A stretch of DNA of 64,000 nucleotides from Marsupella aquatica. Lineage: Eukaryota > Plantae > Marchantiophyta. The stretch spans positions 2,379,573 through 2,443,572 of the forward strand of contig OZ316899.1 in NCBI GenBank assembly GCA_973895155.1. The letters are read 5' to 3'. Under the pieces are notes generated by a model. That model did no database searches. It saw only the letters and a list, made by a program, of their open reading frames with translations, and had not been told where the DNA came from. A program made the position numbers and the translations under genes. Shown here piece after piece: positions 1,857-62,215 of the stretch (position 1 is its first letter; each line of letters begins with the position of its first letter).

Positions 1857-1898
1857 CTTGGGGGGGTCACTTCCGCGGAAGTGACCCATCACGTGCGA
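1857..1898 (+). repeat. Left TIR (G7TCACT - 15 nt - CATCACGTGCGA)
   Basis: Both blocks match the reverse complement of 16754-16792 with identical 15-nt spacing. Contains the perfect 24-bp palindrome GGGTCACTTCCGCGGAAGTGACCC (1864-1887). Confidence 0.85.
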
Positions 1899-5830: not shown

Positions 5831-6547
5831 ATTTTGCAGATCTTGTTCAGCATGGCACACATTGCTCGTCAGTTGTTGGATCCAAGATTTGGGCATAGGG
5901 AGCACCTTTGTATGGATCCCCCTTGTTGTTTTCAATGTGATGAGGGAGGAACTGTTTTGTTCTGTGATGGCCCTTGTGGTTGCCATTTTCATTATGTAGT
6001 TGATGGCCACAACCCCAATGAAGAAGATGGCCATGGACCTACATGTGAGCGCATTGTCATTTCCAGAGGACATGATTGGGCTGCAACTTGGCTTTGTGAC
6101 CTATGTCAGCAAAATAGAGGAAGATGTTTTGGTTGTGGACTTCTTGGCAGAACCTTGAGACCCAGCACAGACGAGCCCCTTGTGGTCCAGTGTTCTCATG
6201 ATGACTGCTACTCTTTTTACCATGTGGGCTGTCTCCAACTACTTCTGCATTTGGGGGAAATGCCTGTCACCCGCCATCCAGATAACCCTGATGCACATCC
6301 CGATGCTCTTATATGTCCACAACATTACTGTGAGGTCTGTAAGGAGTATTGGGAGGGCATTTGGGATTTTGTCCAATGTTGTAGATGCCCTCGTGCATGG
6401 TGTCGTGATGAAGGACCAACAGCAAACAGGCACTTGAGGAGAGGGGTGAGGGGCCGAGACACCTGGGACATTGGACAGTGGCGCATGATTTACTGTAATC
6501 GCCATGTCATTCCAGAGGGTTTTGATATCCCTAGTACCCATGACTAG
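5822..6547 (+). CDS. Tandem PHD-like fingers, EDM2/NSD-type, transposon cargo
   Basis: CFQCDEGGTVLFCDGPCGCHFH...WLCDLC...CFGCGLLG...VVQCSHDDCYSFYHVGC...ICPQHYCEVC...CCRCPRAW follows the Cys/His spacing of the plant EDM2 triple-PHD region. Confidence 0.8.
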   Translation: MKVILQILFSMAHIARQLLDPRFGHREHLCMDPPCCFQCDEGGTVLFCDGPCGCHFHYVVDGHNPNEEDGHGPTCERIVISRGHDWAATWLCDLCQQNRGRCFGCGLLGRTLRPSTDEPLVVQCSHDDCYSFYHVGCLQLLLHLGEMPVTRHPDNPDAHPDALICPQHYCEVCKEYWEGIWDFVQCCRCPRAWCRDEGPTANRHLRRGVRGRDTWDIGQWRMIYCNRHVIPEGFDIPSTHD

Positions 6548-33726: not shown

Positions 33727-34984
33727 TTGAGGGCTTGTCGATCCCCCGACGTCCCCTCGACGCCCATAGGCTAAACCGCTCACGCTTGTGGTGTGCCGGC
33801 CACTCCGCCGGTCTGAGTCAGCGCATGTCAGTGGCCGCTTCCTTAAGTTTGTTATACGGACCCGAGGGAGGGGCCCCTCCACGCTCGTAACCCAGGTGTG
33901 CAAATAGCGACCAGCCGCCAGTCCAAACCTGAATTCCCCCTTATTGCCTAATGATATCCTACCCATAATGATTACCTAAATACTGTCGTTATGCTAATAA
34001 TAGCGGCCTAAGACACTCCTAACGCGCGTGCCGAGCGCAGTTAGACCGAATCACTCATTAACCGCCGTACCGGCGGCATCACAGCTCCCTAAACCCAAGA
34101 AACCCCCCCAGCTCAAGCCGATTCCCGCAGGTTTCGCGCTTGGCGAGGCCGTTTCCGCGGCTTAGCGGCATGGGACGCTGCTAACTTCCTTCTACTACTA
34201 CTATTAACATTTTACACACATATACTGGACAGATCCTTCATCGGGTCATGAGATACGTAGCCGGCCTAATCTAGGCCTTCCCTTGTCTTCCCCTCCATCT
34301 TGTTAGGTATGTTTGGATTCCGCCGCCGGAATGATCCCCAATAGGCTTGGTTAAGCCGCTAAGACCTCTCTCAGCTCGACACATCCAACTCTCACTCCCT
34401 TGCTTACTTTCCTTCCTTCTGGTTGATGTGGGCACTCTTCACACAAGTTAATGCGACACACAAATAGCAAAATGACTCCTTCTGACTGAGTCATACCATG
34501 CACTTGCCATACAAACAGTACATCTCATACACAAGCTCTGCGAACTAAGCCGTGAGGCCAACTCTATTCAGCTCTTAGGCATGAGGAAACATGAATATAC
34601 ACAATGTCACGGTATGACTAACCGAGAGCTTCTCTTACTACTTGATCCCAGCCCGGCTGGTGCAAACTAAAAACTTGCTAAAGAAGAGGCCCTGAGCTCC
34701 CCGCTGCCCAGGTATTTATCCTGGTAGTGGATCCACCTAATTCTTTGCAGCGTAAGCCTAATCTACCTAACAGTAATCTACTTGCCCGGATCTACCTATG
34801 TACAGCAAGGCAGGAGCACAAGTGTTGCTCCTGCCAGTGGAACCGCAATTCCACTAAGCTAAGTGTCAGGGCCGCCTCCTGGTCCTGATCCTAATCCTAA
34901 ACTTGGAGATCAGCGCCCGCCCTGCCCACTACGCCTCCTATCTCCACGTCCGCCCTTCCTAAAAGGAACGGCGCCCTTGCACCA

Positions 34985-37900
34985 TCACGACACCGGTGGT
35001 GGATCCTCAATGGACGCCCCCAACGCTTCCTCCTCAGCCACTGTCATAGGTTCGTTCTCTGACAGATTACCTGCCCTTGACTGAGTCAACTCTCCATCGG
35101 CCTGACTGGGTCTACCATCGGCATCGGCGTCGGCTCGGGAATCATTCTTGGCTACGGCCTCAGCCTCGGCCATGGTCTCCCCAGCCTGCTCAAGAGGCGG
35201 ATCTGGGATACCGGCCTCATTATTGAGTAGTTCGGCTTGGGCCGCGTCATCCCCACCTTTGGTGATAGCGGAATCTATTGCCGTGTTCATGCCGGAGGTT
35301 GGTGCTGGGTCTACCTCCTTGGTCACCACGGCCAGCGGAGTCGTATTACTCTTTGACCCTGAAGGTTTCCGCTTCTTCTTCTTTTCTGGTTCGGCAGCTG
35401 GTCCCTTCCCCTTCCCACTTACTTCCAGCACTGGTGCAGGTGGCGCGGCTTGTTCTTCGGCCAGTACCACTCCTAGTAACTTGGTTGCCCCAATTGGAGT
35501 TGGGCCTGATGAAGACAAGCACTTAAATACTGCGGCTTGTTTCTTCAGCCGCTCTGTTTGGTTGTCGGCCCGCCGCTGTAGGTTCTCTATCTTCCTCGTG
35601 ATTTCCTCCAACTCCTCCTGCACCTCGTCCAGGTCCTTGCGCGCCTCCTCTAGTTCCTTCTGGGCTTCCTCCCGTTCCCTGTGGGCTTCCTCCAGTTCTT
35701 TCTTCAAGGTAGCCCTCTCCTCCCGGGTTGCTCTTAGCTCCTTGTCGAGCTCTGCAATGATGACAGACTCCATCTGGTTCATCTTGGCGTAAGTCTGATC
35801 GAGCATCTCGTCCTTCTCCCGTAGGTCGGCCTTGAAGCTGGTCGTCAGGGACGCAAGCTCCTGCTGCAGGGCCATAATCCCTTGATAGGATTTCCCTAAC
35901 TCGGCCTCCTTCTGCTCAAGGGCTCCGCGGATTTTCTCGAGCTCCCCCTTCAACACCCATTCCTTTCTTTGGGTCTCCGCCATGGCCCGGTTGTTGGCTG
36001 TTATGTGGGCCTCCTCTGCATTCCTCAGCTCTCGCTTCCATTTCTCCCTGTCCTTGATTGCGTCGGCCAACTCTCATTGGGTCCGCGTCAGTAGATTCTC
36101 GATCATCCGATTATCAGATTGTGCGGTATCCAACTGGCCCTGCATGATATTTAGCTCATGCCGCTTAATCCGCAGCTCATCTTGGGCTTTCTTGGCCACC
36201 CTCAGGTCCTTGATTTTGGCTTCCCTTTCCCTAAGCCAACGGATGACCTCGTCCTTCTTGCTTCTTTCCAAGGCCACCGCTTCTTCTAATTGGCGCTTCT
36301 CCAACATCTCCCTCTGGAAAAAGGGTCCCTGCTCCAACTCCTCCCCAAAGATGCTGAGCGCCAGTTCTCCACACATCTCCCCGTACTCCATGGCTCTATC
36401 TTTAGCATAGGTGGAGGAAGTAGAAGTCATCGGCATCATCCACCGTGGCCTCTGCTCCCAAGCCGTCTTGCGGATCTCTTCAATTGTGGCTAGAGGTTTG
36501 CTTCCTTTTTCGGCTAGCCGCCTGATGTCCTCCGGCCAATCTCCTCCTGGCAAATCCTTTTCCCTAGCCAGGGCTTCCTTCTCTTCCTGCCTGATTCGCT
36601 CCTGAAATTCCTGCGCCGTCTGTTTTATGCCGTCAAAGCTCGGGGGAGCAACATCTGGTGGGGGAGACTCAGGGCTACTCTGCTGGTTGGGGTCCCCCCA
36701 TACTACCCTTGGAAGTGTGGGGATAAACCGGCCACAGGTCCTTACTCCTGGAACGTGATGGTCCGACCCATAGTCGGAGTTATCATGGCTGCAGTCCTCC
36801 ACTACCTCCTCTACTTCTTGGACTTCCGGCTTCTCCCTCTCCTCTTCGTCGGTAGGAGCTTCAGGCAATTCTGCCTCAGATTCAGAGCTTGAGACTCCCA
36901 TGTATATTCGAACACCCGGCTTGGATTCTGGCCTGATTCTCTCCTTGTCTCCAGTAAAGGGGTTTTCCCTTGTAAGCCGGTGTAGGCCTACCTCTGGAGC
37001 AGTGTCCTGCATTGTTGCCGTTGCCGTTGTTGTTGCCGATGCCGATCTCTTTTCTTTCTCCAGTAGTTTCAGCAGATTCTGCATGCCTGGTTGCTGCATC
37101 GGCAAGTCCTCCATCCTTGGCCTAAACACCTGCTCAATCGTAGGGCTAACAGGTGGTTGAGGCTTCTCTGCTACCGGCCTCGGTGCTGGAGCTTCCTCGG
37201 GTGTCCTTACCTGCAGGGGAAGTACTGGGGCAAAGGTCTGACCTCTGGCATACCGGCACAACAGTGGCATGTGATAGCCAAGCCGCGACATGCTCCCCAT
37301 GCCAATTACCTGCTGCTCCTCCTTTAAGATCTTCTTCAATTGGTTGAGGAGGTACCCGTTGTAGTCCCGTCTTGGGTCTGGCCTCTCTGCCAGATAGACC
37401 TGTGCCTTGCCGATCTCTGCCCTTGGCAAGTTTTAGTGCATTGTCACCCGCAAGAAGTCGATCATCTCTCCTATGTGTGGGTTGGTGCAGGTGTTCCGGA
37501 AGAAGCCATTCTTCGTTGATGGCCCGGGGAACGACCGGAACTCCTTGTCAAGCAAGGTCTTCCTGGTATCAACTTTGGTCTTATTGTCTATCGGCAAGCC
37601 AAACACTTCGGCAATCACCTTGGGAGTAAGATAGAAATCCTTCCCATATATCCTCGTGCAATTGGTCTCGGGTTCCCATGACCCCACGAATTCTAATAGG
37701 TCTGAATCGGGTACCTCCGGCTTCAGCCATGGTAATCTTACAAAGGCCTCTAAGCCGGATCCGGCCATGAAGCCTTGGTACTTCTTGGTCTGCATGGCCG
37801 TAAAGCATGCATCCTCCTCCCGTGCAAAATGTAGTTGCACCTCCACCGGTAGGGTTGCCGCCCAGCCTTTCCAGGTGTCATCCCTGGTTGGAATGGCATT

Positions 37901-38644
37901 GATGGGATCGACCTCCTCTTCGGCTTCTCCCTGCCTCCTGCTCTGCTGCTCGGCTGGCTTCTTTGGTGCTGCCGACCTCGTTCTTTTTGCCGGGGTGGCT
38001 TCATCGTTGACGGCTTCCTTCCTCTTCATCTCTACTGCCGTGGAGGTTTCTCCTAGCACCGTTGCCGGGGTCCACCTTTTCGTGCTACCCTTCAATTCCC
38101 AATGTATGTCGTTGCAGTTCTTGATGGCCTCTCAAATGCCGATGATTCTATCTTTACAAAACAGAAGATCGTCGAGCTGATTGGAAGTAGGAGTCCACAA
38201 GAACTCGACGTTGATGAGTTTGCCTCCTAAGAAAGCCGTCTTCTGCAGCTCCCACAATCGAGCGAGCTCCTGCCGTTCTCGAGCTGCCCTTTCTGATTCC
38301 TCGTCCTCGTAAGTCTTGATGTACTCAGTTGCCCGTTCGAACAGGCATCCCCAGAAATGTGCCGCTTGATTGACGTTGCTCATACCCTCCTTAGGTCGAT
38401 CGTCGGTATCTACTCTCTCCCCGAGTGCTTGCCTAAGCAGCTGACAGTAGTTGGCCTCCCGTAGTCGTCTGCCTAGTTCGTGCTCGCAAATGAGCCACCA
38501 TCTCCTGCAAGCGCTCCTTACCCCTCTCCTCTTCCGGTCCTTCCTCCCGTTGATCCTTCCTAGCCGCCGATGCTTAATGCGCCCTAACCCTAATCGAGTT
38601 TTCACCCCCAGCGTCCTTACCTCCGGCCTCGGCCCGGGTTCCAT
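34985..38644 (-). pseudogene. Family A LTR-encoded protein, copy 2 (three in-frame stops)
   Basis: ORFs 38132-38644, 37433-38095, 36074-37429 and 34985-36070 are colinear with copy 1. Confidence 0.85.
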
Positions 38645-41600
38645 GGTCGCCCCTAATTGTTTATATTTTCCTTATTTTGTCCCTATACTAAGGTGTTTCT
38701 AGGGTGCACTCCTGCTTTACCCACTTAACTGGCCAAGTGATTCCTGGCTAGGCATCACAAAGGATGTGAGTGCAAAAGTAGTCAAGGGGACTACCTCTCT
38801 ATAAGTGGAGAGTTGAAATTACTTATGTATGGAGTGATTAGACATTGTAAGCACATTTCAGAAGTTTTGTCAATCCTTTGTGACCCTGGTATGACATGGA
38901 GCAGGTAGTAGGTAGTTTTTTAGGAGAAAAGTCCCTTAAGCTCCTTGACAAGTGTTTAACAGATAATGACAAGCCGCTCACCTGGAAAATCCAATCTGCA
39001 TTTTGGAATGACCCTCAAACCAGCCATTCAGACACAGAAGTTCAACGGATTCTGCACCTCGCAAAGATGGTAGAACAACTACTAGACTCTTTTGCAGACG
39101 CTGCAAAAATGACTAGATCCCATATACTGGCGGCAAATGCACCATCTAGAATACAGATGGAAACTCAACCCGCCATAGTAACGGCACCAAGAGCCAAGCG
39201 AGGCCGCCCACTAGGCTCTGGAGACAAACAACCGAGGCAGAGGAGGGCAACCCCCTCTAGAGAGGCAGCACCAATCCATAGGGCCCCTGCCTCCCCACAG
39301 CCTGAGACACGAGAAGATAACGAAGAGATTGCCATCAACTACGGCAGCACAGGGCACATATGGGACAGACAACAGACAATACTAGATGAACACTTTGCCT
39401 TCCACATATCTCAACAAATAGAAGAAGACTTACCTGACCCAAGGACAATCCCAGAAGCACAAACTCACCCAGACTGGCCAGAGTGGGAGAAAGCTATTCA
39501 TCTCGAATTGGACTCACTTCGGCCCAGTAACCCCAGCAACCCCAGGTACACACCTGACGGGATACAAATGGACTTTTGTGAAGAAGCGCTATGCAAAGGG
39601 GGAGGTGGTTAGTGTGGCACGACTAGTAGCTAAGGGATTTACTCAAATCCCAAGCACGGACTATGACCTCACATATTCCCCAGTAATTGACGTAATCACT
39701 TACCACTACCTGATCACCTTTTCCCAACATCATAACTTATCGATGCATCAAATGGACATAGTGACAACTTATTTATATGGCCACCTGGATAGAGTAATTC
39801 ACATGGAGGCACCACTCGAACTGATACAACGAGCGGAACACCACAGTAAGGGGGAGAAAATACATCAAGAACCACATAAGCATACACACAGTACCTTCGA
39901 CCACACCAACGCAGCAGTACTTAATAAAACAGCAAAATCAATAACATTGGGAGCTTCTTTAAAGCAAGAGTTGCAAAAGAAAAATCTTACCACACGAACT
40001 CGTTTAGCAGTACAAGTACTCCGCTCAATGTATGGCCTGAAACAGAGCGGCCTGACATGGTATAAGAGATTTAAATCAGAAATTCTAGCAATGGGATTCA
40101 CGAACGCTGATATAACACCATGCCTTTTTATTAAGCGAGCAGGACGCAAACTCATTATCATTGCCATATATGTAGACAACTTGAACTTATTTGGCACCAG
40201 CAGAATCATGCTGGAAACTATTAAATTACTGAAACAGGCATTTGAGATGAGAGACTTGGGGCAAACTACTTTCTGCCTCGGATTGCAATTCAAACACTTG
40301 CCCACTGGAATTTTCCTGCATCAATCTACATATACAAAAAAGATATTGAGGCAATTTAACATGCATCAGGCAAAACCAGTCCAATCTCCTATGGACATTC
40401 GTTCCTTGGATAAAGATAAGGACATCTTCCGGAAGAGAAACGAGAAGGAGCCACTACTTGGCCCAGAAAAACCGTACCTATCTGCAATAGGTGTCCTGAT
40501 GTTCCTCGCCAATCAAACAAGACCCGCCATAGCATTTGCGCTGAATCTATTGGCCCGCCACAGTGCAGGACCAACTATATGCCATTGGAATGGTATCAAA
40601 AGAATATTTTGCTACCTAACTGGCACAATAGATCAGGGATTGTTTTACCCTGAGAATGCTACTTACTTACTAACCGGGTATGCAGACACAAGATACTTGT
40701 CAGACCCGGAGGACGCTAAGTCCAGACCGGGTACATGTTCTTGATGGGACAAATGGCGATGTCATGGAGGAGCAGCAAACAAACGCTAATTATGACTTCA
40801 TCTAACCATTCAAAAATAATTGCCCTGTATGAGGCCAGTTGTGAGTGCATATGGCTACGTAATGTAATTAATCATACATGAACACACAGGAATGCCAGAA
40901 TTACATGCACCAACACATGTGTATGAGGACAACCGACCATGCGTTGACCAAATCCAAGCCGGCTTCATCAAGGGTGACCGCACGAAGCATATAGCCCCTA
41001 AGTTTTTCTTCACCCATGAGCAACAAAACAAGAACATCAAGTACGCTGGATTCCAAGTGAATCAAACTCTACAGATATGTTTACGAAATCCCTACCGCCT
41101 GCCATTCACAAAAAGCATGCACATTCCATAGGGCTACGAAGCTTATCTCAATTACTGCTGAACTTACAAAGTTGGGGATTGCAGCTAACGTGCTTGCAGC
41201 ATTCAGGGGGAGATTCGTCCGACCGTAGCCAAAAAACTGCAACTTTGCAGACGTCGATACCTCCCCAACATAAGCCAACGAGGCACTTCTCAACACACAA
41301 GCTAGGAACAGACTGACACCATCACAACGATCAACGGGAGCGCAGTGAACGTTGGCAAGACCCTGCAACACAACTCAAAAAGCGCAATACCAACTTCCAA
41401 GGAACCCTAATGCTCCCAGTACTCCACACCGTCGAGGAATTAGACACGTACATTGTTAGGGCTACGAGCTTGCAGGGAAAAATGCCACAAGACCGAGCTA
41501 AACCACATAACATTTTCCCGACAAATACATCTTCAAACATTATACTATTTTTACATTAGACCATACACATTAAATCATTTATATAACCTGGAGGGAATGG

Positions 41601-45695: not shown

Positions 45696-48505
45696 CGGGA
45701 AGGTCAATCATTGCATTGCGGGAAAGTTGGTGAGTCCAAAATCTGTTACCATTGTCTCTTTTATCCTCGGAGTATTGCTGAGCTTGATCCCCCTGTGGGA
45801 CACAAAACTCAATTCAACTCAGAAGAAGAGGGAGTTCTAGAAGGACCCAACGGCGAAGATGTTTAGATGATATTGCTAGGCGTGAGAGCAGTTTGTTTGT
45901 GGGCTTACATTCGTAGCAACTTTTGTTTAGAACTCCGAAGACTGCAAGAATTTTTTTGAAGAAGTAATTTTATTGTTTGAATAATTTGCAAAATACAAAA
46001 ATGCTATTTGAATTTGGCCAAAACGTAGAGCGCCCTACATATCCTGATTGATTTCATAGTCTACTTGCAAAACGCAAATTGATGCCAAGTATGAAACTGT
46101 TGAACCTACATGTCTATTCAATTGTCAACAAATGACAGAACTACTCGAACCCATATTACATACATATTCAACCCCAAGATCATAGTAAAATTTATCCATA
46201 CGAGTCTTCTTCCAAGTCTCGACTCTCTTGCCTTCAATAGGAAAAATGTCGAGGTACTCGTCGACCTTGTTGGACTGACAAAACAACCAAGAGTCGAGCC
46301 GGTGAAAGCACGCTCGAGGGCAGCTGACTCCATATATCAATTGGCGGAAAAGCTTTTACCCTTTCTCCATAGAAGTAAGGGGTATCATAAGGCAATCTCC
46401 TCTCACACCATATCACCGTTGAAACCATTGTTGCCCACGGTTTAGAGTTGGTTGCCAAATGTCTTCATTTCCTATTGATATGCGCACTCGTTTGAACTAT
46501 CTCCGCGATGATTTTAAATCCAGAATCATCAACATTCATTACATCTTCGAGGATCCATAGGACTTTCGGCCAAATATGCAACTCAACAAGATCATATGGT
46601 AGCCCAGAAATCAGCGGACCTGGAGGAGGCCGACATCAGAGTGGATAACGAGATACCGAGATCCTCGCACGCTGTTCATGTTCTCTCGGAAGAATTGTCT
46701 GCAATTCTAATCAAAGTTTCTGTCGGGTATTATTGATCTCCTGTCTCTTCTTCTCCACAACATCCATTTGTAAGAGAGTCCCGCTATTCCGAATATCGAT
46801 TGTGAAATAGTAACCAAGTATCTGAGCCTCATGACTCTCAACAAGTCTCCTCCAAAGCAAGCAACATTCAGAACGACATTCAAAAATGAATGCACGAGGG
46901 ATAAGTACGGGTCCGCAATGTCACTCATCAAAATTCCATATGATGTCTCGCTAACAATGACAGAATCTAGGCAAGAGCTTGGCAAGGCTTGCTGAAGGAA
47001 TTCTCAATAAAATTCAGTAGCCCCTCTGAGTATGAATTGTGTGCCTAAACATCTCCTGTCCAACGGACGGATGACAGTAGAGTAGACACCTCACTCACAG
47101 TCAAAATGGGCTGATGAATTAAATCATTCCGATCCAAGTCGCAGCCATAGAGTTTCCAAAAGCACTAGTAGAGATGTTTGCATGGGTAGTAGGGTCCTGA
47201 AGAGGACTCCCGCGTTGTGAAATCGATACAAAAACAAGAGGGGAAGACACAAATCTGAACAATATGGATCCCTTGTGTCCGCTGACTTTGTCGAGTGGAG
47301 ACTTTTTGCGCGGAGTCCTGTGGCATTCCCATCTTGAACCTGAAGTACTGAATTGCAGGACATCACTTCTTTCTTTGCTAAATTCATCCTTTTTCAACCA
47401 TCAGTCAAGGGGACTCCTCTTCGACGCCGAGTGTGCCCATTCCTGGTTTTTAGTCTCTCATCTGGATACGAGTGATGAATGTGTTTGGGATAACTATCAA
47501 GGTTAATCACAATGTCACCGAGAGTGACTCGAAAGTTCAAGATTTAATCAAATGGTCGCTAGTGAGCATTTTGTGCTAAAGGTAGAACTTGAACCCCATT
47601 ATGTTGTAGGAAATCAATCTCCTCTTTTGCTAGGGATGTTCTGCAAATGACTGGGAGGACATAGGGGAGTGAGGGGAGGCTTCCTATGGCATTTGGCTGT
47701 CCAGACTTTTGGCAACATTTGTTGTTTGGACAGAACCAATACGGAAATGGACAGGTGTGGAATTTGCTTGTACCTGTGAAGCAAAGCGCAACAACCCCAC
47801 GTCCAGGTTGAGGAAGTCCCACTCATCAAATGAAGGTACCGCACACACCTCGTTCCTTACCTCTATATGCACCTTGACATCCAAGACTTGAACCAGTTGT
47901 CAAAGTGCGACGGATATGCCAGGTACGTGGTTGGACGTCCACCTCAATTACCATAGGAGTGGAATGTGGACGTTCCCTGGGAGTCCCTGGTCAACCAGTG
48001 GTGTTCTCAAGAATGTCCACATCTGAATCTCCTCCCCGGACATCTGTCTGAGGTCTGGTTCTTGTCTGTGGAGGAGGAGTGTCAAGAATCTTGATGGAAT
48101 CTGCATCAGTAGTTGTGTGATTGATGCTGGTTTGATGCTTCAACGAGGTTGGATCTGGAATAAATCTCTTTCAACGACGCAAGGGGGGTGAACTCTGCTT
48201 CATCGAGAGCATCTTCAAACGTCTTTTGTTTGAATGGGCTCTCAAGAATGTGAACAATTTCAACATCCGAATCAATCGGTTGAATTGGATTGGATCCGCT
48301 TAACCTTCTTGACCGAGTCACTCAAATGTCGATATTGGATTCAGGTAGTGGACCATGGAGGATGTGGACAGGTGGGACAGGACTTGACCTGGTTTGCCGT
48401 TTGGAGGGGGTGACCTTAGGTGCTGGACTGTCGGTTTCAAGATGCTGATTACAGATATCTAGCTGCGTTTGTGTCATCTCAAACTGAGACGGGCTTGACT
48501 CAATG

Positions 48506-48715
48506 GACCTCCTTGATAGTCTGCGCAAAGGCCTCTCCTCAACGTCAGATGGCCCAGATGAATTTAGATTGATGACTTGGGGAGACTTTGGAGTTTTGAG
48601 AATCTTAACGTTTGCCAATGGATCCTTTTCACTGATGTTAGTCGACCTCCTTGAAAGTCTGCACAAAGGCCTCTCCTCAACGTCAGATGGGCCAGATGAA
48701 TTCAGATCGATGACT
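48506..48715. repeat. 72-bp direct duplication (48506-48577 / 48644-48715) inside a Ser/Pro-rich minus-strand ORF
   Basis: The peptide VIxLNSSGPSDVEERPLxRLSRRS occurs twice in ORF 48322-48969. Confidence 0.8.
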
Positions 48716-49441
48716 GGAGATGACACCGGAAGTGGAGTCTTCAAGTTTGTGCTTGAAACTCCTTTGTATCTTTGTTTTTTATGTGTTGTCACAAGGAGTA
48801 CATCGGGGTGGTGAGAATCTTCTACAGCAATTGCCGTTCCATGGACAGAACCGTGCGGAACCCTTTGTGTGGTGAAATCACCTGGTTCCTCTCGGGAGTA
48901 TGGGCACATAGATGGTTTGATCATTGTTTTGTTGAGGGCTGGGAAGAAATTTTCCACCTTTCCAAACAACCTTGCATGTCAAATTTCAAGTTCAAAGAAA
49001 CTTGGACCTTGCCCTTTCCTCCCATGGTCTCGATAGTTCACATAGACACCAATCTGATACCTTGCTTGAAGTGCATCCAGTGTGCATGATTCCACAGGCC
49101 CAATTTTCTTGTTTAGTGACCATGTCGTGCGCATACACATCGCTACACAACATACATTGCTTGTCACATACATCCAGACATAGTCACATTGCCACATCAC
49201 AAACACAAGAGAATGGAATACAAGTGGAACTCATGTCCACACATGATTGTCCAAAACCCACAATCGCCCCCCTAGCTGGGAGTAAGGTCCCCTAACTCTA
49301 GCTAGCCATGAGTTCTACAAGGTTGATATACACCTTTTCAGGTGTGAAGATCAGGAGGCCGGGTGCAAGTGAGCCCCATCGATCACCTACCTGCAATCCA
49401 TATCTGCCAAGAGAACACAAATGATAACTAGTCGGCTTCAC

Positions 49442-49580
49442 CAACACTGAGGACACAACCATGATCCACTAGGAATCACCTGCAATGGTGGTGTCAAACA
49501 TGACATGTGTCATCCTCTAGAACACTTATCACAAATCAACATAGTAGCTGCTCTCTGAGCAGATCCACACAACATACATT
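49442..49580 (-). pseudogene. PHD finger at the integrase C-terminus
   Basis: CMLC...LICDKCSRG*HMSCLTPPL...WLCPQC is C4HC3. The stop at 49510-49512 is TGA in place of TGG. Confidence 0.85.
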
Positions 49581-52500
49581 TAAAGCCAGCACAAACATGT
49601 GCCAAGCTTGGATCTACTGTACCATCAATGTTGGGAAGGTGACATGGTGCACAGTTGCGCACATGATCCTTCCAAACCATACCATTGCGTCCCTCCAACA
49701 TCAGGACACCAGAAGGCAACACTTCACGCACACGTAAGATTGTCCGGCCTGCAGTCACATCAAGTGTTGTGGGTGCTGTTTGCTGCAAATAAACATAATC
49801 ACTAGGATGAAATCGGCGAATGCTTGCACGGTAACCTCCTCCACGAATAGTGGCATACCTCAAACTATCACGATGTTGGGCAATGGCAAGGTTGTCAAAA
49901 GCCATGGGCATCACTCTGTGAAGTACCCGTGCTCTCTCTGAACACACCTTGACCCAAACATCAGGATCATCCAAGTTCACAACTGGTGCAGCATCACAAC
50001 GAATAGCTGCTGGCAAATCTGGCTCTCTACCATAGAGCAAAAAGTAAGGTGAGAAGGATGCAAGTGATGCTTGCCAACTGAAATGGTAGCCCATAGCTAA
50101 CCAAGGTAGCTGGAGATCCCAATCTCCCAAATGACCAACCTGCAAGCCATACTTACGCAATCCTCTCTTCACAGTTTGCACAACTCTCTCAGCTAATCCA
50201 TCTGCCTCAGGATGATCACGAGAGGTAGTACGATGATCAATCAAAGCTTGCTCACACAAATTCTCAAACTCTCCACGGAACTCAGTTCCCTGATCAGTCA
50301 ATACCTCAACTGGTGCTCCAAAATGACTGAGTACACGATCCAAAAATGTAGTAGCAACTCCTCCACTGGCTTTATCTGGCAACGCCACTAACTCAATCCA
50401 CTTGGAGAAGTGCTCCACCATGACCAAAACATATCGATTATGACGTTGGGTAAGAGGTAATGGACCAGCAAAATCCAAACTCCAACAATATCCCAAACCC
50501 ATGATTGGTAACGGGTGCAACTGGGGAGGGGAGCATTAAATGATGCTCTCACTCTATCACATACCACACATTTTGTTATCAACTGCTGGACATGAGTGTG
50601 CATACCACGCCACCAATACTGTGTCTGTAGCAAGCTGTAAGTGCGCTTCACACCAAAGTGACCCAACTCCTCATGCGCATGTCGCACCAAATGTACTCGT
50701 TGTGATGGTTTTGGTACCACCAACACCCTACCATCATGCAGTACTCTCAGAAGATGGTTTCCTTCCCATCAAAACCTCTTGGCTCTTTGCAGAACCCTGT
50801 CACGCTCCTTGGCATCAACACTGCCAACAATAGAACCACTGCGCAGATATTCCAACACTCTCACATCATTGTGAATATCTTGTTGTCCAGAAGTTACCTC
50901 ACCAACATCCACATCTGAAGACTCATCATCCACTCCATCCAATGGGGTAGAGTCCATGGATCCACTGTATGCTGGCACCCAACAAAGAAAGGCAGATGCA
51001 TGCCATCCTAGCACCATCTCCTTATCTGACTCATCATGCCATCTGGCTCCAGTCTCATCCTGCTGACTGGTACATGGGTTGCGGCTCAACCCATCTGCAT
51101 CCAAGTTCACCTTTTCAGGTCTATGTACAACCTGGAAATCATATTCCTACAACAACAATGCCCATCTTGCAAGCTTCCCAGTGAGCTTGTCAGACTCCAT
51201 TAACCACTTGAGAGGCTGATGATCAGTGATCAAGGTGAAGGGGTTACCAAACAAGTAGCAACAAAAGTGTGCAATAGCCCACATTGCTGCCAAACACTCT
51301 CCCTCATAAGAGCTATACTTAGCCTCTGTTGAATTGTTTGATCTACTGGCATAAGCCACAACAAACTCATTCCCCTCATCATCCTTCTGAGTCAGCACTA
51401 CTCCAAGTCCTACTCCACTCCAATCAGTGTGTAGCTGAAATGGTCTGCCTGAAATGGGTCTTCTCAAAATAGGGGATGATGCCAACCTTTGCTTCAACTC
51501 CTGAAAGGCATGCTCTTGGTCATCACCCCAAATCCATTCCTGATCCAACTTAGTGAGTATGGTCAAAGGTTTAGCAAGCTTGCTAAATCCTTTAACATAC
51601 CTCCTGTAGTAGCTCGTCAATCCCAAGAATGTACAAACTCTACTCACATCAGTAGGACAAGGAATCTGTGTAATGGCCTCCACTTTAATCTGTTGTACAC
51701 CTAATCCCCCTGGGTATATAGTGTGGCCCAAATACTCAATCTGGTCTTGGAAGAACTTACACTTGCTAGATGGAGCTTCAACCCATGTGCTCTCAATCTC
51801 TCCAACACAATCTGCAAGTGCTGCTGATGTTCTTCCACAGTAGAAGAATAGACCAAAATATCATCAATATTGTTAACATCTGACAAAATCCAAACCTGCA
51901 AGGATTCGATCCATGACTCTCTGGAACTCAGCTGGTGCATTCTTCAACCCAAATGGTAAGAATAATCACTGATACAAATGATCTTTGTCATAAGAATCAA
52001 TCCCCCAGAATGCTGTCTTGGACCTGTCAGCATGCCTAATTGAAAGTTGATGGTATCCTGCCCTTAGATCCAATGAATTGAAAACCTTTGCATGCCCCAC
52101 AACATCAAAGATCTCCTCAGGTGTGGGCATGGCATATCTATCAGATTTTGTCTGGCGATTAATGGGTCTATAATCACCACACATGCGCCTATCTGTGTAA
52201 TTGCCATGGACATCCTTCTTGGCTGGCATCACTGTAGCAGATGCATACTCCCCATATGAAATCTCCACCAAATGCGCCTTACCTTTTTTTTCTGCGAATC
52301 AACAAATTCAATAAGGTATTTGGCCATTTGACCAGTGCTGTCGGATAATATTCAATAAAGCTAAGAAAGCTGCCTGTAGGCGATACCGACGAGGTCCAGC
52401 CAGATGAGCGCCGGCCAAGGCGGGTTGGAAGTCAGAAGGCCCGCAGTACCCGCCTAAACCTTTGCTTCGAGAAGGGGAAGGCACTGGAAACACCAGTAAT

Positions 52501-52946
52501 CGGGAAGGGGCCTAGGATTGCACGTCCGGTGATTACTCCGGGTCCGGCGCTTCCCCCGAAAATAGGAAAGAAATATATTTTCCTGGAGCACTTCAATCGA
52601 GTTGGCTTTTGAAACGGATCCAGCCTCTAACAAATCTTGAGTTCTGCTTTGAATTAGAGCTCTCTCCATGTCACTATAACGGTATGGCCTACGAAAGATT
52701 GGCGCATCACTAGCCAATTCAATCTAAATACCAGGACCCTTTAATGTCCCCAAATCCTTTATGCTAAATGCAAAACAATTCCAGTAACTCTTCAGGAATT
52801 GATGCATGCGACGTCTCTCCTCCCCTGTCAACTTAGGGCCAAGTTGTGGTTCCCAACTCTCCACCAAATCCCTAATATCTCTTTGTAGGGTAGAAGAGAT
52901 AGCCGATGATTGCTATTTAGCAGTAGATTGAGCAGTCCCTTCCTGC

Positions 52947-54104
52947 TCAACAATCTGTCCAGTCTTGGCCAATCCCCATACATCCATGGACCGTCTGCTC
53001 GCCCCCAGCTGTGGTTTGTACTATCTCAGTGGACCGCAAGCTCACCAAGGGACAATCAGTAATTCCAGCAGAGCGCATCCGCAATTGTTCAGCTACTCTC
53101 AAGCTGATAATCCAAGTCAAACAATTCAGATCCATTGCTTGACCAAGAACCTGGAGCCGCAAACCCTCTGACACAGAGGCAACTGCAGTGGTACCAGTCA
53201 AAAATCCCATAGCACGCTCTCTCTCATCAGCAGTAGGTTCCACTAACTGTTGGAGAGTTGTGTCCCACACAAGTCCAAGGCCACCTGCTCTGAATGCATA
53301 TGAAGCAGAGTGGCTTACAAGAGTGGGTAATGCACAACGTGGGCGCCCAACTGCATTGACCACTGCCAATGGAGGTCTATCAGGTTGGGTCACACCCTGT
53401 GCACGACGCCCAGGATCCAAAATATCATCCACCACTAAGGCTGGTGAGCGTGGAATGTTGTCAAATGCGCGCTTCAGCATCTCACATGGGATCAAATTAG
53501 TCCACCACAAGCGTGGACGATGTGCACGAGAACCCACACGTGCAGCATCCAATAACACAACAGGTCCAATCCAAGACCTCACTTGGTGAACATTGGCAAC
53601 AATCCAACTACGATCATCACCTAACAATGGCACATTCTCCAAAATGTATGCTGGAGACTGTGTTTGATGTAGCTGGAGATGACGTAGCACCCGTAACATC
53701 TCCCAAAACAATGCAGAGCGTGGATCATGAAGTCCATGCCCAACGCCAGCTCTAGATTGGCCCTGACATGGCTAACCAGCAATCACCAAATCAATGGGGC
53801 CAACACGATGCAGATGATCCACCCCCAACAATGAAATATCAACAGGTAGTGCATGCTGATAACCACAAACAGCATCCACTGGCAGCAACTGTGGATATCT
53901 ATCCACCAACATAGCCATATGTCGCAATGAGACCCTCCGTGCTGTCTCATCTGTCTCCACATACAAATAACGACGCACGGGAATTCTTGCCTGAAGAACA
54001 ACAGCCAATCCAATGCTAATCCCACCAAAAAGATCCAACAAACAAATACCCTCCGGTGGATACTGCCAAGCAATAGGAGTGGTATCCAATGGTGAAAGAG
54101 TCAC
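52947..54104 (-). pseudogene. C5 cytosine DNA methyltransferase domain within Gypsy pol
   Basis: Motif I LLDLFGGIS, II VETD, IV IAG*PCQG (TAG for TGG at 53772-53774), VI ILENV, VIII RPRLWWTN, IX ERERAMGF, X LGQAM. Confidence 0.88.
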
Positions 54105-54959
54105 AGGTCCATCTGCAAGAGACTGCTTTGCTCCTGACTATGGTGTAAAAGCATGAAGCCATGCATCATGTACCAATCGTGCTGCTACCTATGGCAAGGC
54201 TTGTGCAGTGCCCCACACTGGTGGCACAACATTGCCAACAGGTAATCCTCGTATGATGTGCTCCTCATGAGACTCCTCCAATGGTGGAACATTTGCTGCA
54301 TGCGCATTACCCTCAATCAAATCATCAGGTCCAGCAATTACACCACTGAATGCTGCCAAAGACAATGGTGTGGATTTAGGGCCTCCCACAGGTCCACTAA
54401 ATCTCACTGGCAATTTGTTCAATCGAGCATCTCCTGACTGCCAATCAGGTCTATATGACACTAATTCCTCCAAAAAATCAAGAATAAATCCCATGGGGTA
54501 GAGCACTGTACATCTCACCAACACATCATATGACTTTGCTTAGTCATAATAGCTCGCGCTTGTATCTGTGAGCTATCTGTGGTATGACCTTCCTGAATCC
54601 TCAAATCAAGAGGTCTCTTGGTAATGTGCTGTGTAGGTGTAAGTCCCCCCAATGAAGTCTGAATGGGAAAGGGACAATCCTCCAAATCCTCTGGATGCAA
54701 TCCCAATCCACGTATGACAGACTTTCCCAACATCAAGGGCTGAGCACCAGTATCCAGTAACACCCTCTTTGGCTGGTATATTGCTCTAGAAGGCCCAACT
54801 AATCGGAAGATGCCACTCCGATTATCCAGTGATACAACACTAGGTTTAAACCTAGTCCTCTCAAATGCAGGGCGTGCTGGTAAATCCACCAACCTCGCTG
54901 CTGCTGCATGCCATGTCTCACTAGTAGCAGTAGGTGGCATGGTCTTCATTGCTTCAACA

Positions 54960-57900
54960 CTCAGAAAGAGCTGACCCACCATCGTGTTCCAATTTCATCA
55001 GTTGGTCAATCCACTCTCCATTGTCACTGAAATAGAACCTGTCCAGCCGGGATTGCACCATTTTGCCATTTATGTTCCTGCGCCAAGTAAAGCTCGCCCC
55101 GTCAACAGCTCCCTTAAAGATTATTGCATCTACCAGGTTAAATCTGACCTTGAAAAACCGCCAGAACTCTGCCTCTCGACCCTTAATTAGAGGGGAGTCC
55201 CCTGTAGAGTCTTTCCTCCGCTCTATCATATTAAAATCCCCGCAAATGATCCAGTTAGCCTGAGGCAATATCTGCTTGAGCTCGTTCCATAGTATTGTTC
55301 TTCGTCTAGGCAAATTAGGTGCATATACACTTAATATCCCAAAATTGCATTTTGCATATCTCACTAATGCCCATACTGCACGCTCGAGATCCACCATTCC
55401 CGACGCGATCAGTTGTACAGCCGGGTGTAAGAGTAAGGATGTTCCTCCGCGTCCCTCCTCAGGGGCCGAGGTGACACACCGGTATAGGGGCAATATTGCT
55501 CGCATAGCTACGTCCAATCTAAACTGATCTGCTTTGATTTCCTATAGTGCCAAAATATCCAGCCTTTCCTTTCGCGATTCTATCCAAATCTTAACAACAT
55601 TCTTCCTATTGGGCTCACACAGCCCACACACATTCCAAGAGGCGATCTTCAACATTCCACCCATGCTGTGTCCACCTCCCCACAATCCCCTAGCACTTAC
55701 AGCCAATTCCGGCACCCGAAGAAGTACTCGACCCAACACTCCAGCTCCTGCGGCTCCTGGGTGTCTCCGTTAGAAAATCCCCAATCTCCTCCATCAGGTG
55801 ATCCCCTACAGGTGACGCGGTGCCCACCAAATCACCCCCTCCACCAGCTCCCGGTGGGGTGGCAATATCCACTGTCATCCTCGCCCTCTCCTCCCCGGGT
55901 GAACACTAAAATGCCTTCCCTGAAACAGGTACAGACAAAAGTGAGAACTTAAGGGAGCGCTGTTTTTTTGCCTCTTGAGGTGCACAGTCCTTCTTAGCCA
56001 CTGGCGGTGTCCTCTTGTCCAGCTTCCTTGCTCTCTCTTTCCCTTTGCCGGAGACATACTCCTCATACTCAGACATATCCACATCAGTGTCCCCATGAAA
56101 CGAATATGCCTCCGCTTCCACCCCATCCTCATCGCTGTGCGTTTCAATCGAGTCTGCAATAGTCGATGCAGCCTTCCCGCTAGGTGCAAAGCTCCATGCC
56201 TCGGCATCTAGAATGCTAGGCAACAACACTTTGGTTGCCGGTTGTTCCGTTGTCAACACCCTGCTCAGGGCAGGTCGCAGCTCCTCTCCCCTGTCCCTCT
56301 GAGAGGCAATAGTCAAATTTTCTGCATTCCCCTTCCCACCTTGTTGATTGTCAGTGGAATCTAAGGCTGCTTCTTCTCGCATCAAAGCTTCAACAGCCAG
56401 TAAGTCCGCAGTTACCGTGTTGTCCTCCCTAGGGGCAGTCCTTCCCACTCCCATTTTGACCCGTAGATTCGAGGCTAATTGCCTCCTCAACACCTCTTTT
56501 GGGTCTCCCTTGGCTACCTCATCCAATTTGTCAGGAGTATCATCTGCCGCCTCCCCTTTGTTCTCTTGATCAGCTTCCGCCACTACGTCTCTTCCCTCTC
56601 GGCATTCCCGGGCAAGGTGCCCCTTCTTGTTACATTTGAAACAGTGAAAAGGAATGTTCTTGAATAGAATCGGTTGCCAAATTATTATATCCTCTCAAAT
56701 TTTGACTCTAGCACTTTGTGGCACCTCCCGTTCCGTATCCCACAGAATGCAGGCCCTATCATGCGGATAAGAGCTGTAGTCATCACCTTGACTGTAATGC
56801 AGCAGCTTCCCCAGTGATTCCGCAATCTTAATGCGACACCCCTCTAATACCAGCGCGCGGAACGGTAGCTCTATCCACCCCTGGAAACTTAGTGAATTTT
56901 GCAGACCTGATATCAAAGGAAGGATCCCAAGGAAAAGTAAATACTAATTTCCGTTCCAAAAACCAGGGGGCGGCCTCTAGGGCCAAATCACGATGGTCCG
57001 CATTTTCAAACACCACCATATAGAAACTTTTCCCTACAAATTTCACTTGCAATACCGGCCAATTGTGCTCCTCAATCATCCATTCTTCCACCCATGCCCA
57101 AAACGTTGGCAACATTGGGGTCCAGTCGGTGAAGTAACAGAGCATTGCACAATTGTACAGTTGCTTCACATTCCCCGTTGCCTCCTCAAGACTCCAGTCC
57201 ACCGTTGTGTACAACTTAGAGCTCCAGTCCCCCTTTTTGTTATCCGCAATCTCTTTTAATATATTGATGCATTTGTCCGACACTTCTTCCCTCTCAGGTC
57301 CTTCCCCTGCTTCAATGTCACTCCTGCTATAGAAACTCCTGGCTCAGCTGATTGTGATCCCTGGATAGGAGATTTTGCATCACGGATACGAACTTCAGCT
57401 CCCAATGTTCAAGCTGATGCCGCAGAACTCAGTTTGGTCGGCTCCACCCCCGGGCATAGTGATGCCCCAGCTGCACGCGTATCACCAGTCTCCTCTCGAA
57501 GTGCCCGGGGTTCTCCAAAATCCAATTGCCGCTTACGAGCACGCTCAGAGTTTGCATACAAATCAAAGGGCGGCTGAGCCACAAAGTAAGGCCGCCTGTT
57601 TGGCGCGTCCTACGCTCCCCTGCCCTGGGGTAGAGGCAAGCTTCGTGAATCCTGCCTACTGTACCTCCCATTTATCTCATTGTGCAATGTCATCTTACTG
57701 AAAATGCAGGAGCAATACCAAAGTAATAAGGGACAGTTGCCTCTCACCTCACGCCCCAAGCTTTCAGTGTGTTTTGTGGCCTGCGATCCTTGCTTAATCT
57801 TCCTCTTACCGTTTCCTCAGCTATTGCATTCTTTGTTTACACCTTCCAGCCTCGTCCCTTGGCCTTGCACTGTTCACCGACCACTTCCACTATGTCCGAT

Positions 57901-58250
57901 TCTCCCGATCCACCGCTGCAACCCTCTTGCTGATCTTCAGCCAGCCCTTACCCTATCTATTCCTTGCCCACGCTCTCTTGTTTTCTCTTAATCTGCTCTT
58001 ACTTGCCTCTGTGCTTCCATCTCTTCTCATCTTAATCCCTAATCCCTCCTCCCCGTTGGCTCTCCTATAGTTTTATCCGTTGGTTTCTCACTTTTCTGCT
58101 TTTCTTGTTACCCTGATACCAGAAGCAATGGTTTTCCCGTCTAATCCCACTTACTCCCAATCCCTAATCCACCTTTGCAAACCGTATACTCCCACTCCTT
58201 ACTCAAACCCTTAGTTTACACTCTCGTTCAAAAGAGCTTCCCCAAGTCAA
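54960..58250 (-). mobile_element. Second L1-type LINE, 3'-truncated (ORF1 with DUF4283 and CCHC; ORF2 endonuclease)
   Basis: 56828-57283 is DUF4283-like (FYMVVF...APWF). CFKCNKKGHLAREC near 56610-56650. Endonuclease SWNVCGL, VYAPN, GDFNM, SRLDRFY at 54960-55660. Confidence 0.88.
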
Positions 58251-58949
58251 TCTACAGAATCTAATCGCCTTCCACCCCCAACCCGATGACCCAGCAAGGC
58301 ACATCCCCAAATTAATGTTCCGCTGTCCGCCTAGGTCCTCAGTTCTCCTCAGTTCCGCTTCCTCAAATTTGCCTCTTGGCCTGCTCAAACCCCTGTATAT
58401 ACTTAGAGTTAACTCAATGCATAGTATTTGTTTGAATGAAATGATCTTTTTTGTTGAATGATTCTAGATCTTGTCATTAGAATAAATATTAGTTGGATGG
58501 AATATTTGATAGTACAATAATGCCCAGACCAGTACCTGTTCTCCTCTCCCTATTCCTTTCCTTATTAGAATTCATGTACTCCAAAAAGAGATAATGCGTC
58601 AGCATATGACTTTTCACTTTGGAGAAGTATTTGCAACTGCAGTGTTAAATTCAATAGAGCCACTTGTATACCCTTATGTAGTTTACGGGCAGGATTGGGC
58701 TTGCACAATTTTTATCTTGTATTGAGATGGATCTCAACAAACCTCCCTCCGATGAATCTCCCGTTTCTTTCTCGTTGGGAGATATTTGTTTTGTGACTCG
58801 ACCCAAGGTAGCTGCCAAGGAGGCAATAGTCCGTAGGTATGGAGAAAAGGGTTATGATGTTGTGCTTTCATCCACAGAACCATTCCTTGTGGTGTCTGCT
58901 ACCCAATCTAGAATAGTAATCATGATTTTAACTTAAGTTCTCTCTTGAC

Positions 58950-60115: not shown

Positions 60116-62215
60116 TAGCTCCCTACTTAATTGTGAAGCGTCCTCGCAAACATCACTATCGGCGGTATTGTCTTGATGATGGTACTTCTTGACACAATCA
60201 TAACTGACTCGTGTGGGGAGTAAATCGTCGGCGTACATCACGAGTTCCATAGATCCGTTTGGGAGTATTTGATTGACTAGGAAAGGTCCCAACCAGGGAG
60301 TTGCAGCTTCCCTAGAATTGCATGTACCGGCTGTCGTATAGGAGCACCAAATCCCCCGTCATGATGTCAATCTTCCGTAGTCCTTTGTCATGCTGATTCT
60401 TAGAAGCTGCCTACTGCTTTGCTGTGTGTCGGGCTGCGAGTACCCGGGCTTCCTCCAATGTTTCAATCTGATAAACTTTATCCAAAGAACTTTTGGCTTT
60501 GGGTAAGCAATCACGAATACTCACCCGCGGCGTGTGGATTTCAAACTCGACCGGAACTAGAGAGTGTTGCCCAAACACGAGGAAGTACGGAGTATGACTA
60601 GTGGTAGTCTTGTAGGCCAAGTTGTATGAGTATACAGCTGCATACAACTTGTCATTCCAATCCGTTTTGTGAGCGGCTACTGTTTTGTTGAGTATTTTTG
60701 ATGATCCCATTGGCTTGTTCGGTCAGTCCGTTGGCCTTAGGATGGTATGGGGTGGTCTTACGGTGTTTGACCAGGTACCATTCAGTAAGCCGTTCCACTG
60801 TCTTGTTGATGAAGTGTGTACCCCGGTCGCTGACTATCTCCAAGGGTGGCCCAAAGCGAGTGAATATATGTTTGTATAAGAACCTGGCACTGGTGGCCGC
60901 GTCATCTTTTACTGTAGCTTGGGCTTCAACCCACTTGGTCAAATAATCAATGGCCAGCAGGATGTACCTGCATCGCCACTGGCGAGTGACTGGTGTAAAC
61001 GGCCCAATGTAATTGATGCCCCATTTCTCAAACGATGCAAGCAAAAGTACAGAGGTGAGAGGGTGGTGGTGTGACTTCTGTGGGGCGGCAGCCCGCTGGC
61101 ACAAATCACATCCCTTAATGAATTGTTGTACATCCCGGTGGAGAGTGGGCCACCAGTACCCCAAATCCAGAATTTTGTGGGCAGTGGTGATGGCCGCAAA
61201 AGGGCCGCCCGCATCCTCCTCATGTAAGGCTTGCATCACAATGAGGGTCTCCTTGTATTTGAGGCAGCGCCGTAGCTTCCCATTGACGCCTTCTTTATGC
61301 AAGTGGACTTGGATCATCATGTACGGCCCGGCCTTGCGTAAAAATACTGTTGCGGCTTCTTGATTAATCCCGTCAGGGATTTTCCCAATCAGGAGGAAAG
61401 TAATGAGCGGTCCGTACCAGGTGGATGTGCACTCCCCTATATGGAACAACTCTTCATCTGGGAAGGTATCATTGATAGGCTGATCGATGGGTACACCATC
61501 CAGTCGTGAAAAGAAATCCGCATTAAGGTGTGCCTTCCTTGGCCAAACCCAAACTTTGTAGTTAAACTCTTGCAAGAGCAGAACCCATCTGGCTATCCGT
61601 CCCGTGACATCTGTTTTGTTCAGCATATACTTCAGGCTATCATGATCCGTGTGGAAAATAACTTTATAGCCGAGTAGATAATGCAAGAACTTCTTGCATG
61701 AATAGATAATCCCAAGAGCCTCTCGGTCCATAGGAGAGTAATTTTTCTCGGCTGCAAACAGCTAACGGCTGGCAAAGTAGATGGGGTGATTGCGACCGTG
61801 GTCATCTAGCTGGCTCAGAACGGACCCAATGCAAAATCCCGAGACATCGACGTACACATGGAACTCCTTATTCCAATCCAAGGTTACCATGATGGGTGTT
61901 GTGGTGAGTCAATGCCTGAGTTCCTCAAATGCTATGCGCCTTTGGGGTGTTTCTTTGATCACTACGTCTTTCTTCATCATCTCCGTCAATGGTAGCGCAA
62001 TCTTGGCAAAGTCTTTGATGAAGCAGCGATAGTAGCTTACGCACCCGAGGAACAATTGGACTGCTTTTTGATCGACGGGAAACACAGCCGCCATCCAGGC
62101 TGCCACCTTCTCCTAATCCACCTCTATACCCCATTTTGACACACGATGGCCGAGTGACACTCCTTCTTCTACCGCCAAAAAGCACTTGGCCGGATGAAAC
62201 TGTGACGCCGATGAC
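60116..62215 (-). mobile_element. Gypsy pol 3' half (RT end, RNase H, integrase with GPF motif, no chromodomain) and PPT
   Basis: FLGCVSYYRCFI, HTDHDSL, integrase HHCC, SDRGTHF, HPKANG, GPF. PPT TTAAGTAGGGAGCTA at 60116-60130. Confidence 0.88.

Follow-up and report, generated by a model that had tools for sequence, protein, structure and literature searches.

Why should a transposon retain an enzyme of the class that silences it? The question has stood since 2018, because the known carriers are hard-to-manipulate algae, and it is raised again by a Ty3/Gypsy element of Marsupella aquatica that encodes a C5 DNA methyltransferase (DNMT). The element lies in a 64,000-nucleotide stretch of contig OZ316899.1 (hereafter the window; position 1 is its first letter). 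Comparison with its relatives suggests that its family is the land-plant (bryophyte) branch of the published Gypsy-DNMT3 of the alga Klebsormidium, with a predicted readthrough switch and split long terminal repeats (LTRs). Statements about papers cited by accession or DOI refer to the text available for them.

The methyltransferase is encoded on the minus strand at 54053-53106, between the protease and reverse transcriptase (RT) of the element, within a single frame running from 54137 to 52950 whose sole internal stop (53772-53774) is immediately ahead of the PCQ of the catalytic cysteine and is private to this copy. Translation of the minus-strand frame yields what we take to be C5 methyltransferase motifs I (LDLFGG, 54038-54021), II (YVETD, 53963-53949), IV (PCQ, 53771-53763), VI (ENV, 53639-53631), VIII (RAHRPR, 53528-53511), IX (the ERERAMGF region, 53240-53202), and X (LGQAM, 53147-53133), in canonical order and without circular permutation. 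With X in place of the stop, the domain scores 41 bits against PF00145 (E = 1.7e-10; cut-off, 22 bits). Among PDB sequences, human DNMT3A is matched first (E = 4e-10), then DNMT3C and DNMT3B, with DRM2 (2e-3) and bacterial enzymes far behind; an AlphaFold2 model (mean pLDDT, 89.3) has a Rossmann-type fold, and DNMT3A, -B, and -C account for all 34 of the Foldseek matches listed (best E = 2.6e-19). The domain is a member of the C5 cytosine methyltransferases, and is of DNMT3 type by its closest sequences, fold, and motif order. A DRM identity is ruled out by the order I to X, the circularly permuted motifs being absent. Host plant DNMT3 carries DUF3444 at its C terminus (PMC6453930), and the traits of that enzyme are missing here: Pfam finds no DUF3444, and the domain is not a stand-alone gene. 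The proposal of the first-pass annotation that a Gypsy element has a C5 methyltransferase between its protease and RT is thus borne out by Pfam, PDB, Foldseek, and the flanking domains.

The window copy itself is dead, having acquired stops, frameshifts, and a 349-bp insertion, and having lost gag at a junction with a LINE. All of its domains and repeat parts are on the minus strand. The aspartic protease (LLDTGA, 54441-54781) is frameshifted and weakly matched in Pfam (E = 9e-4, under the cut-off); the Pfam-matched RT (51723-52855) contains stops, frameshifts, and the insertion (52273-52621); and RNase H (51081-51446; PF17917, E = 3e-33) is followed by a frameshifted integrase zinc finger and DDE core (50032-50720; PF17921 and PF00665). 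At the C terminus of the integrase is a PHD finger with one internal stop (49444-49578; PF00628, E = 3e-12), confirming an earlier suggestion that pol carries such a reader. The element terminates with a polypurine tract (49264-49275) and then the 140-bp part B of the right terminal repeat (49123-49262; TGTGG...CACGACA; a 71% match to B of the relative L032), beyond which is flanking DNA, with no part A at this end. At the other end, the 5' part of a LINE (54962-57343, minus strand; DUF4283, zinc knuckle, and endonuclease by Pfam), foreign to the Gypsy family, is joined straight onto the element at 54961, in place of gag and the left repeat; gag was looked for across the 64-kb window, with no match. 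Rfam likewise gave no match at 48500-58500, including the insertion. A reading of 52300-52940 as a LINE piece was dropped, this region being the start of RT plus the insertion. Of the hallmarks of Ty3/Gypsy elements, the order PR-RT-RH-INT, the DDE integrase, and the polypurine tract are all present in the window copy, and target duplications of 4-5 bp, not readable in the window copy, occur in copies of its relatives; two identical full LTRs are not found, as all relatives with ends have split A/B repeats.

Three of these lesions are private to the window copy, because contigs of other copies differ at each of them. When contig pieces from four public runs were aligned to the window (small-share air and biocrust runs being left out of the evidence), other copies had a sense codon at position 53773 in all four, skipped 349-350 bases at the insertion in two (X1 and X2), and continued into different sequence at 54961 in two. 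Runs X1 and X2 contributed 3181 and 7621 aligned pieces, respectively (summed contig depth, not copy number), which points to the existence of many divergent copies, and these cover protease, DNMT, and RT evenly. The prospect that other copies lack the domain is thus not realized.

The window holds several other repeats. LINE copies at 888-2012 (+) and 54962-55664 (-) are 67% alike and both are broken just past the endonuclease domain. A 4.7-kb repeat is present twice (6632-11272 and 34084-38759; 91% identical), with long coiled-coil-like open reading frames (ORFs), the 926-residue one having no Pfam match. ORFs at 4527-4991 and 5819-6547 (+), which match BRCT weakly and an NSD-like PHD, adjoin an unclassified CG-depleted element, and 12104-15857 (+), with long ORFs lacking Pfam matches and strong CG depletion (0.22), is probably a decayed DNA transposon. 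At 25340-27409, 38884-40744, and 60411-61761 are Copia pieces, with gag-integrase and RT parts separated by 11 kb, and a fragment of another Gypsy pol that is unrelated to the first.

Beyond the window, matches to the domain at E up to 1e-30 form 232 clusters at 50% identity, and 145 of the 199 homologues examined carry another retroelement domain; an Atlas look-up with the domain gave PF00145 clusters only. Named DNMT-bearing relatives include the land plants Marchantia polymorpha, Calypogeia fissa, Riccia sorocarpa, and several Sphagnum species, and the algae Mesostigma, Closterium, and Klebsormidium nitens. Vascular plants are not among the matches listed; as transposons are left out of gene sets, this does not show that they lack the family. 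The largest family is Sphagnum-like, with 24 loci; metagenome loci L054-L070 (17 of 70, weak matches) are excluded from every tally. Four members of the Marchantia cluster (P0520, P0521, P0522, and P0525) are located on the V sex chromosome. Two family proteins, P0224 and P0466, are filed in cyanobacterial bins (Obscuribacterales and Synechococcales) and are probably plant DNA in metagenome-assembled genomes. P0052 (Tetraselmis, EukProt) is a polyprotein of Copia type, one region of which distantly resembles DNMT (E = 3e-6).

RT and DNMT trees were built by quick searches with SH-aLRT support only and without host DNMT3, the DNMT tree having as outgroup six phage methylases drawn from 33 weak phage-type methylase loci in viral contigs. 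The window copy groups with sequences of Riccia, Calypogeia, and Marchantia and with Sphagnum-like ones, with a support of 95 in the RT tree and 100 in the DNMT tree, which has no Riccia row; this placement points to a bryophyte host. Common to both trees are the bryophyte clade, an L025/L029 clade, Closterium, Klebsormidium with P0039, and a clade with the order RH-DNMT-INT; the position of P0046 differs. All DNMT-bearing rows are separated from 15 other Gypsy rows in the RT tree (SH-aLRT, 92, in a quick tree whose deep forks are open), and chromodomain-bearing matches lie outside the DNMT clade. Because the two trees give the same groups, a single old capture fits, one that likely took place in green algae, with bryophytes inheriting the DNMT. 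In the large and unnamed RH-DNMT-INT clade (e.g., L045:3788-12478, P0040, P0059, and P0076), a single frame carries the DNMT after RNase H and before integrase. The RH-DNMT order is seen in 64 of the 199 homologues, and each tree recovers the clade as one group (support, 99 in both); its hosts are possibly green algae.

What would such an element gain from the enzyme? A clue is provided by where translation of the DNMT frame ends. In the window it closes with ...QSTAK, followed by TAG CAA TCA (52907-52915, minus strand; the stop itself is at 52913-52915), a putative readthrough context, and RT continues in the same frame. The first-pass annotation had motifs I to X in order within pol; the order stands, but pol is not uninterrupted, being divided ahead of RT by this conserved stop. 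No variants at or above 5% are listed at 52910-52922 in the four runs, and 19 other positions among the 136 aligned bases varied. We surveyed the equivalent site in 54 sequences (the window and L001-L053), of which 33 were testable, corresponding to 28 distinct copies in seven families; the 21 untestable sequences include L045, L050, and L051, in which DNMT is not followed by a stop. An in-frame TAG or TAA is present in every one of the 28 distinct copies. It is followed by CAR-YY in 26 of them (background, 105 of 12,916 stop triplets) and by the strict CAR-YYA in 7, representing five of the seven families (background, 35 of 12,916); because copies are related, the seven families are a fairer count than the 28 copies. 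Residues flanking the stop are not conserved, and no conserved methionine follows it. Copies in which both frames are intact do exist: relative L025 has a 1369-codon ORF1 (Gag-PR-DNMT), TAG CAG TTA, and a 1047-codon ORF2 (RT-RH-INT-PHD) in the same frame. At the protein level, five full-length Marchantia proteins terminate at the same point after DNMT. CAR YYA following UAG is essential for readthrough in tobacco mosaic virus (TMV) and gave ∼20% in one plant reporter (PMC2754532), and the conserved stop is likely leaky, permitting TMV-type readthrough into the RT frame.

Readthrough, enzyme activity, and methylation of cDNA are inferred here, the last already proposed in PMC5890265. Ribosomes would mostly stop after DNMT, with a minority reading through, so that particles would contain DNMT at the level of Gag and minor amounts of RT and integrase. 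Within the particle the DNMT would methylate the cDNA, part of it circular, which would then enter the genome marked like host repeats. We consider it probable, although well short of certain, that the Gag-PR-DNMT frame with its likely read-through stop serves to package the enzyme in excess and that new cDNA is methylated before insertion. Excess DNMT is not needed family-wide, because some algal-type members (P0373, P0039, P0046, P0368, and loci L050/L051) transpose with a single frame holding both DNMT and RT, and others with the DNMT placed after RNase H and before integrase.

High output could alternatively serve an action in trans, in which the DNMT targets host chromatin or copies already in the genome rather than cDNA in the particle, as self-restraint or as interference with host silencing. 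Expression at the Gag level would also supply free enzyme, and a host benefit through slower transposition is listed as an option in PMC5890265. Fusion to Gag and protease is nonetheless expected from general retroelement biology to hold the enzyme in particles, and the DNMT of this family has neither the host-type DUF3444 nor a targeting domain of its own, and we regard action in trans as rather unlikely.

The second frame might instead be expressed from an internal promoter, by splicing, or by reinitiation, any of which would leave the DNMT on the Gag side. Stop-separated junctions need not direct readthrough, as illustrated by Candida Tca2, whose junction has promoter activity and directed no readthrough in yeast (PMC2194720), and Ogre has an intron between GAG-PROT and RT (PMC6317226). 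Within the family, the Sphagnum-like elements depart from the strict CAR-YYA, with CAA CCC after the stop, and have an ATG in frame two codons downstream; a Coleochaete scutata transcript has the corresponding RT-RH-INT-PHD frame as an ORF of its own. However, the frame and CAR-YY are conserved even though the neighboring residues diverge, and 4 of 11 junctions have no methionine within 35 codons or in the stretch read, including that of the window, where the first is codon 36. On balance an expression route other than readthrough appears unlikely.

A further concern is whether the DNMT is an enzyme at all, as it could have been kept as a noncatalytic nucleic-acid-binding or structural module, or as an RNA methylase. 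In yeast, the Klebsormidium domain proved inactive, a result that its authors judged inconclusive (PMC5890265), and CG depletion is absent from GC-rich algal-type members (0.91 and 0.98). We did consider CG depletion as a sign of self-methylation, but the values do not discriminate and are uninformative: the window element has 0.34, compared with 0.54-0.69 in six other window repeats and 0.22 in a seventh, and relatives range from 0.27 to 0.98. Conservation argues against a noncatalytic role. Among 160 near-complete family domains, the catalytic cysteine is retained in 158, the motif VI glutamate in all 160, and the motif VIII arginines in 159 and 157, near-invariance across highly divergent families, and the ENV motif and DNMT3 fold indicate a DNA target. 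The family is under purifying selection, with dN/dS of 0.11-0.22 among families where dS is unsaturated, and 0.37-0.71 within the decayed Sphagnum-like family. We thus think it quite improbable that catalysis on DNA is not what is retained. Lastly, chance capture of a host DNMT3 fragment by the window copy alone, or an assembly chimera, to which the rearranged locus (LINE junction and 349-bp insertion) might lend color, is refuted by the thousands of other-copy contig pieces that span protease, DNMT, and RT in runs X1 and X2 and by the same layout, intact, in unrelated genomes.

If cDNA is the substrate, then its form is of interest, and the ends of the elements are unusual. In relatives the left end is a segment A of ∼340 bp, distinct from B, and none of 12 left ends (10 distinct) has B upstream. 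All five two-ended copies have 4-bp target duplications outside the start of A and the end of B: two are A-internal-B, one is A-internal-B-A-B (L032, the only full copy of this form seen), one is rearranged (L020), and one has a short A (L011). In the last (L011:7205-12860), the left repeat is cut to 11 bases starting TGTCA with the target duplication still present, so that either integrase used a cryptic attachment site or the repeat lost bases afterwards. The B|A joint is GACA-nn-TGTCA in four loci, which represent both groups of elements. The A|B joints have ragged ends, one retaining primer-site bases; ragged ends are expected of end-joined linear cDNA, as in retroviral two-LTR circles. 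Split LTRs with 4-bp target duplications imply integration from a site inside the LTR, and the true LTR would be B+A, with integrase acting at the inner joint. Alternatively, A-internal-B could originate by B-B recombination after insertion.

A signal for self-primed reverse transcription, as known from Tf1/sushi and Tcn1 (PMC6317226), is present in two families of relatives; the window copy has lost that region. In these two families, which differ in sequence, the bases after A complement a stretch 26 nt below the TATA box, over 16 and 15 nt in the best copies and at least 9 nt in seven of nine Sphagnum-like loci, and 3 of 2000 shuffled controls reach 10 nt. Inner-joint integration would then begin with Tf1-like self-priming, yielding a B-A-internal-B-A cDNA, and integrase would cut this cDNA within the LTR, at the inverted repeat CA-nn-TG. 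Cleavage at the two inner sites, or integration from a one-LTR circle, would give A-internal-B, and a two-LTR circle would give A-internal-B-A-B, the sole form predicted to be able to replicate again.

The PHD finger may determine where such products insert. The best PDB matches of relatives' PHDs are CHD4, PHF12, PHF21A, and KAT6A, and the finger resembles those of CHD4, PHF21A, KAT6A, KDM5 PHD1, and UHRF1, which are readers of unmodified H3; the residue two before the histidine is aromatic in none of 101 family PHDs. It is predicted to read unmodified H3, and could steer insertion to chromatin with unmethylated H3K4, away from H3K4-methylated promoters. A land-plant polyprotein uniting writer and reader had been put forward on first inspection, and this fares less well than its parts. 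Land-plant relatives can be named, but, because DNMT is on the Gag side of the stop, the predicted readthrough product is the only one that would unite it with the PHD. Nor is the combination a land-plant novelty: K. nitens protein KFL_009030040 has the order PR-DNMT-RT-RH-INT, another K. nitens pol of the lineage ends in a PHD, and 34 of the 199 homologues have DNMT and PHD in a single frame. In its most extended form, our proposal is of a green-lineage-wide Gypsy clade, alive in bryophytes including Marchantia, that would make DNMT3 at the Gag level by programmed readthrough, methylate its own cDNA, and integrate with a DDE integrase via circles from an intra-LTR site, with only two-LTR-circle products founding lineages; we offer this full chain tentatively, as possible but doubtful in its entirety.

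The question posed at the outset becomes testable with annotated full-length Gag-PR-DNMT genes in Marchantia polymorpha (Mp_4g09160, Mp_5g06330, Mp_5g06860, Mp_Vg00370, and Mp_Vg00540), together with the existing Marchantia methylation mutants that release transposons (10.1101/363937). A leaky stop, if real, predicts both the dose and the location of the enzyme. Split ends suggest an explanation for the DIRS-like repeats of Klebsormidium, noted there without comment, and an unusual route for a DDE integrase. Because of them, most copies would also escape LTR-pair finders, and this may account for the absence of the family from papers on bryophyte genomes. The available texts of PMC6453930, PMC9516144, PMC11982613, PMC12885004, PMC9985172, 10.1101/363937, and 10.1101/2021.02.12.428880 contain nothing on transposon-borne DNMTs, and that of PMC5890265 does not mention Marchantia, PHD, readthrough, or a split-repeat origin. 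PMC12344493 and preprint 10.64898/2026.05.21.726589 speak of streptophytes in their available text, without naming land plants, the preprint calling the element 'Gypsy-DNMT3'. In the literature searched, we came across no account of the family in bryophytes, of the stop with CAR-YY after DNMT, or of the inner attachment site implied by the split LTRs and their target duplications; subscription journals, Repbase, or supplements may hold one.

The closest known system is KnitGypsy-Dnmt3 of Klebsormidium nitens (de Mendoza et al. 2018, PMC5890265), which we take KFL_009030040 to represent. It has its DNMT in the pol ORF, under purifying selection, and a DIRS-like repeat arrangement according to the Fig. 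4c legend. It shares with the bryophyte family a nonpermuted, intronless DNMT3 placed after protease and before RT in a Gypsy element, purifying selection, and A-coding-B-A-B repeats (as in relative L032, the window copy keeping the polypurine tract and B only), but it is published from one alga and has DNMT in the ORF of RT, whereas the bryophyte family has a stop and CAR-YY between them. SymbioDIRS-Dnmt3, which has de novo CG methylation activity in yeast (PMC5890265), and PAT-like DIRS elements also combine a DNMT3 in a retroelement with A-coding-B-A-B repeats. They use a tyrosine recombinase, in contrast to the DDE integrase, polypurine tract, and 4-bp target duplications described here; Pfam gave no match to the tyrosine recombinase family and found the rve integrase instead. 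Tf1/sushi and Tcn1 chromoviruses are similarly self-priming, without a tRNA primer (PMC6317226), and have a chromatin reader at the integrase C terminus, but the Gypsy-DNMT family has a PHD rather than a chromodomain, a split LTR, and the additional DNMT. Retrotransposon PHD fingers are themselves already known (PMC6673714 and PMC9940879), including that of Chlamydomonas Gypsy-7a_cRei, which accompanies pol with no DNMT listed in the available text of PMC9940879. EpiLTRs likewise join methyltransferases or readers to the pol of an LTR element, but their DNMTs are sister to DNMT4 and are accompanied by DAM and a chromodomain (10.64898/2026.05.21.726589). An in-frame stop is shared with SIRE1, MuLV, and Tca2, and the CAR-YYA context with TMV-type UAG-CAR-YYA signals; in SIRE1, MuLV, and Tca2 the stop follows gag or precedes env, whereas in the Gypsy-DNMT family it follows protease and DNMT.
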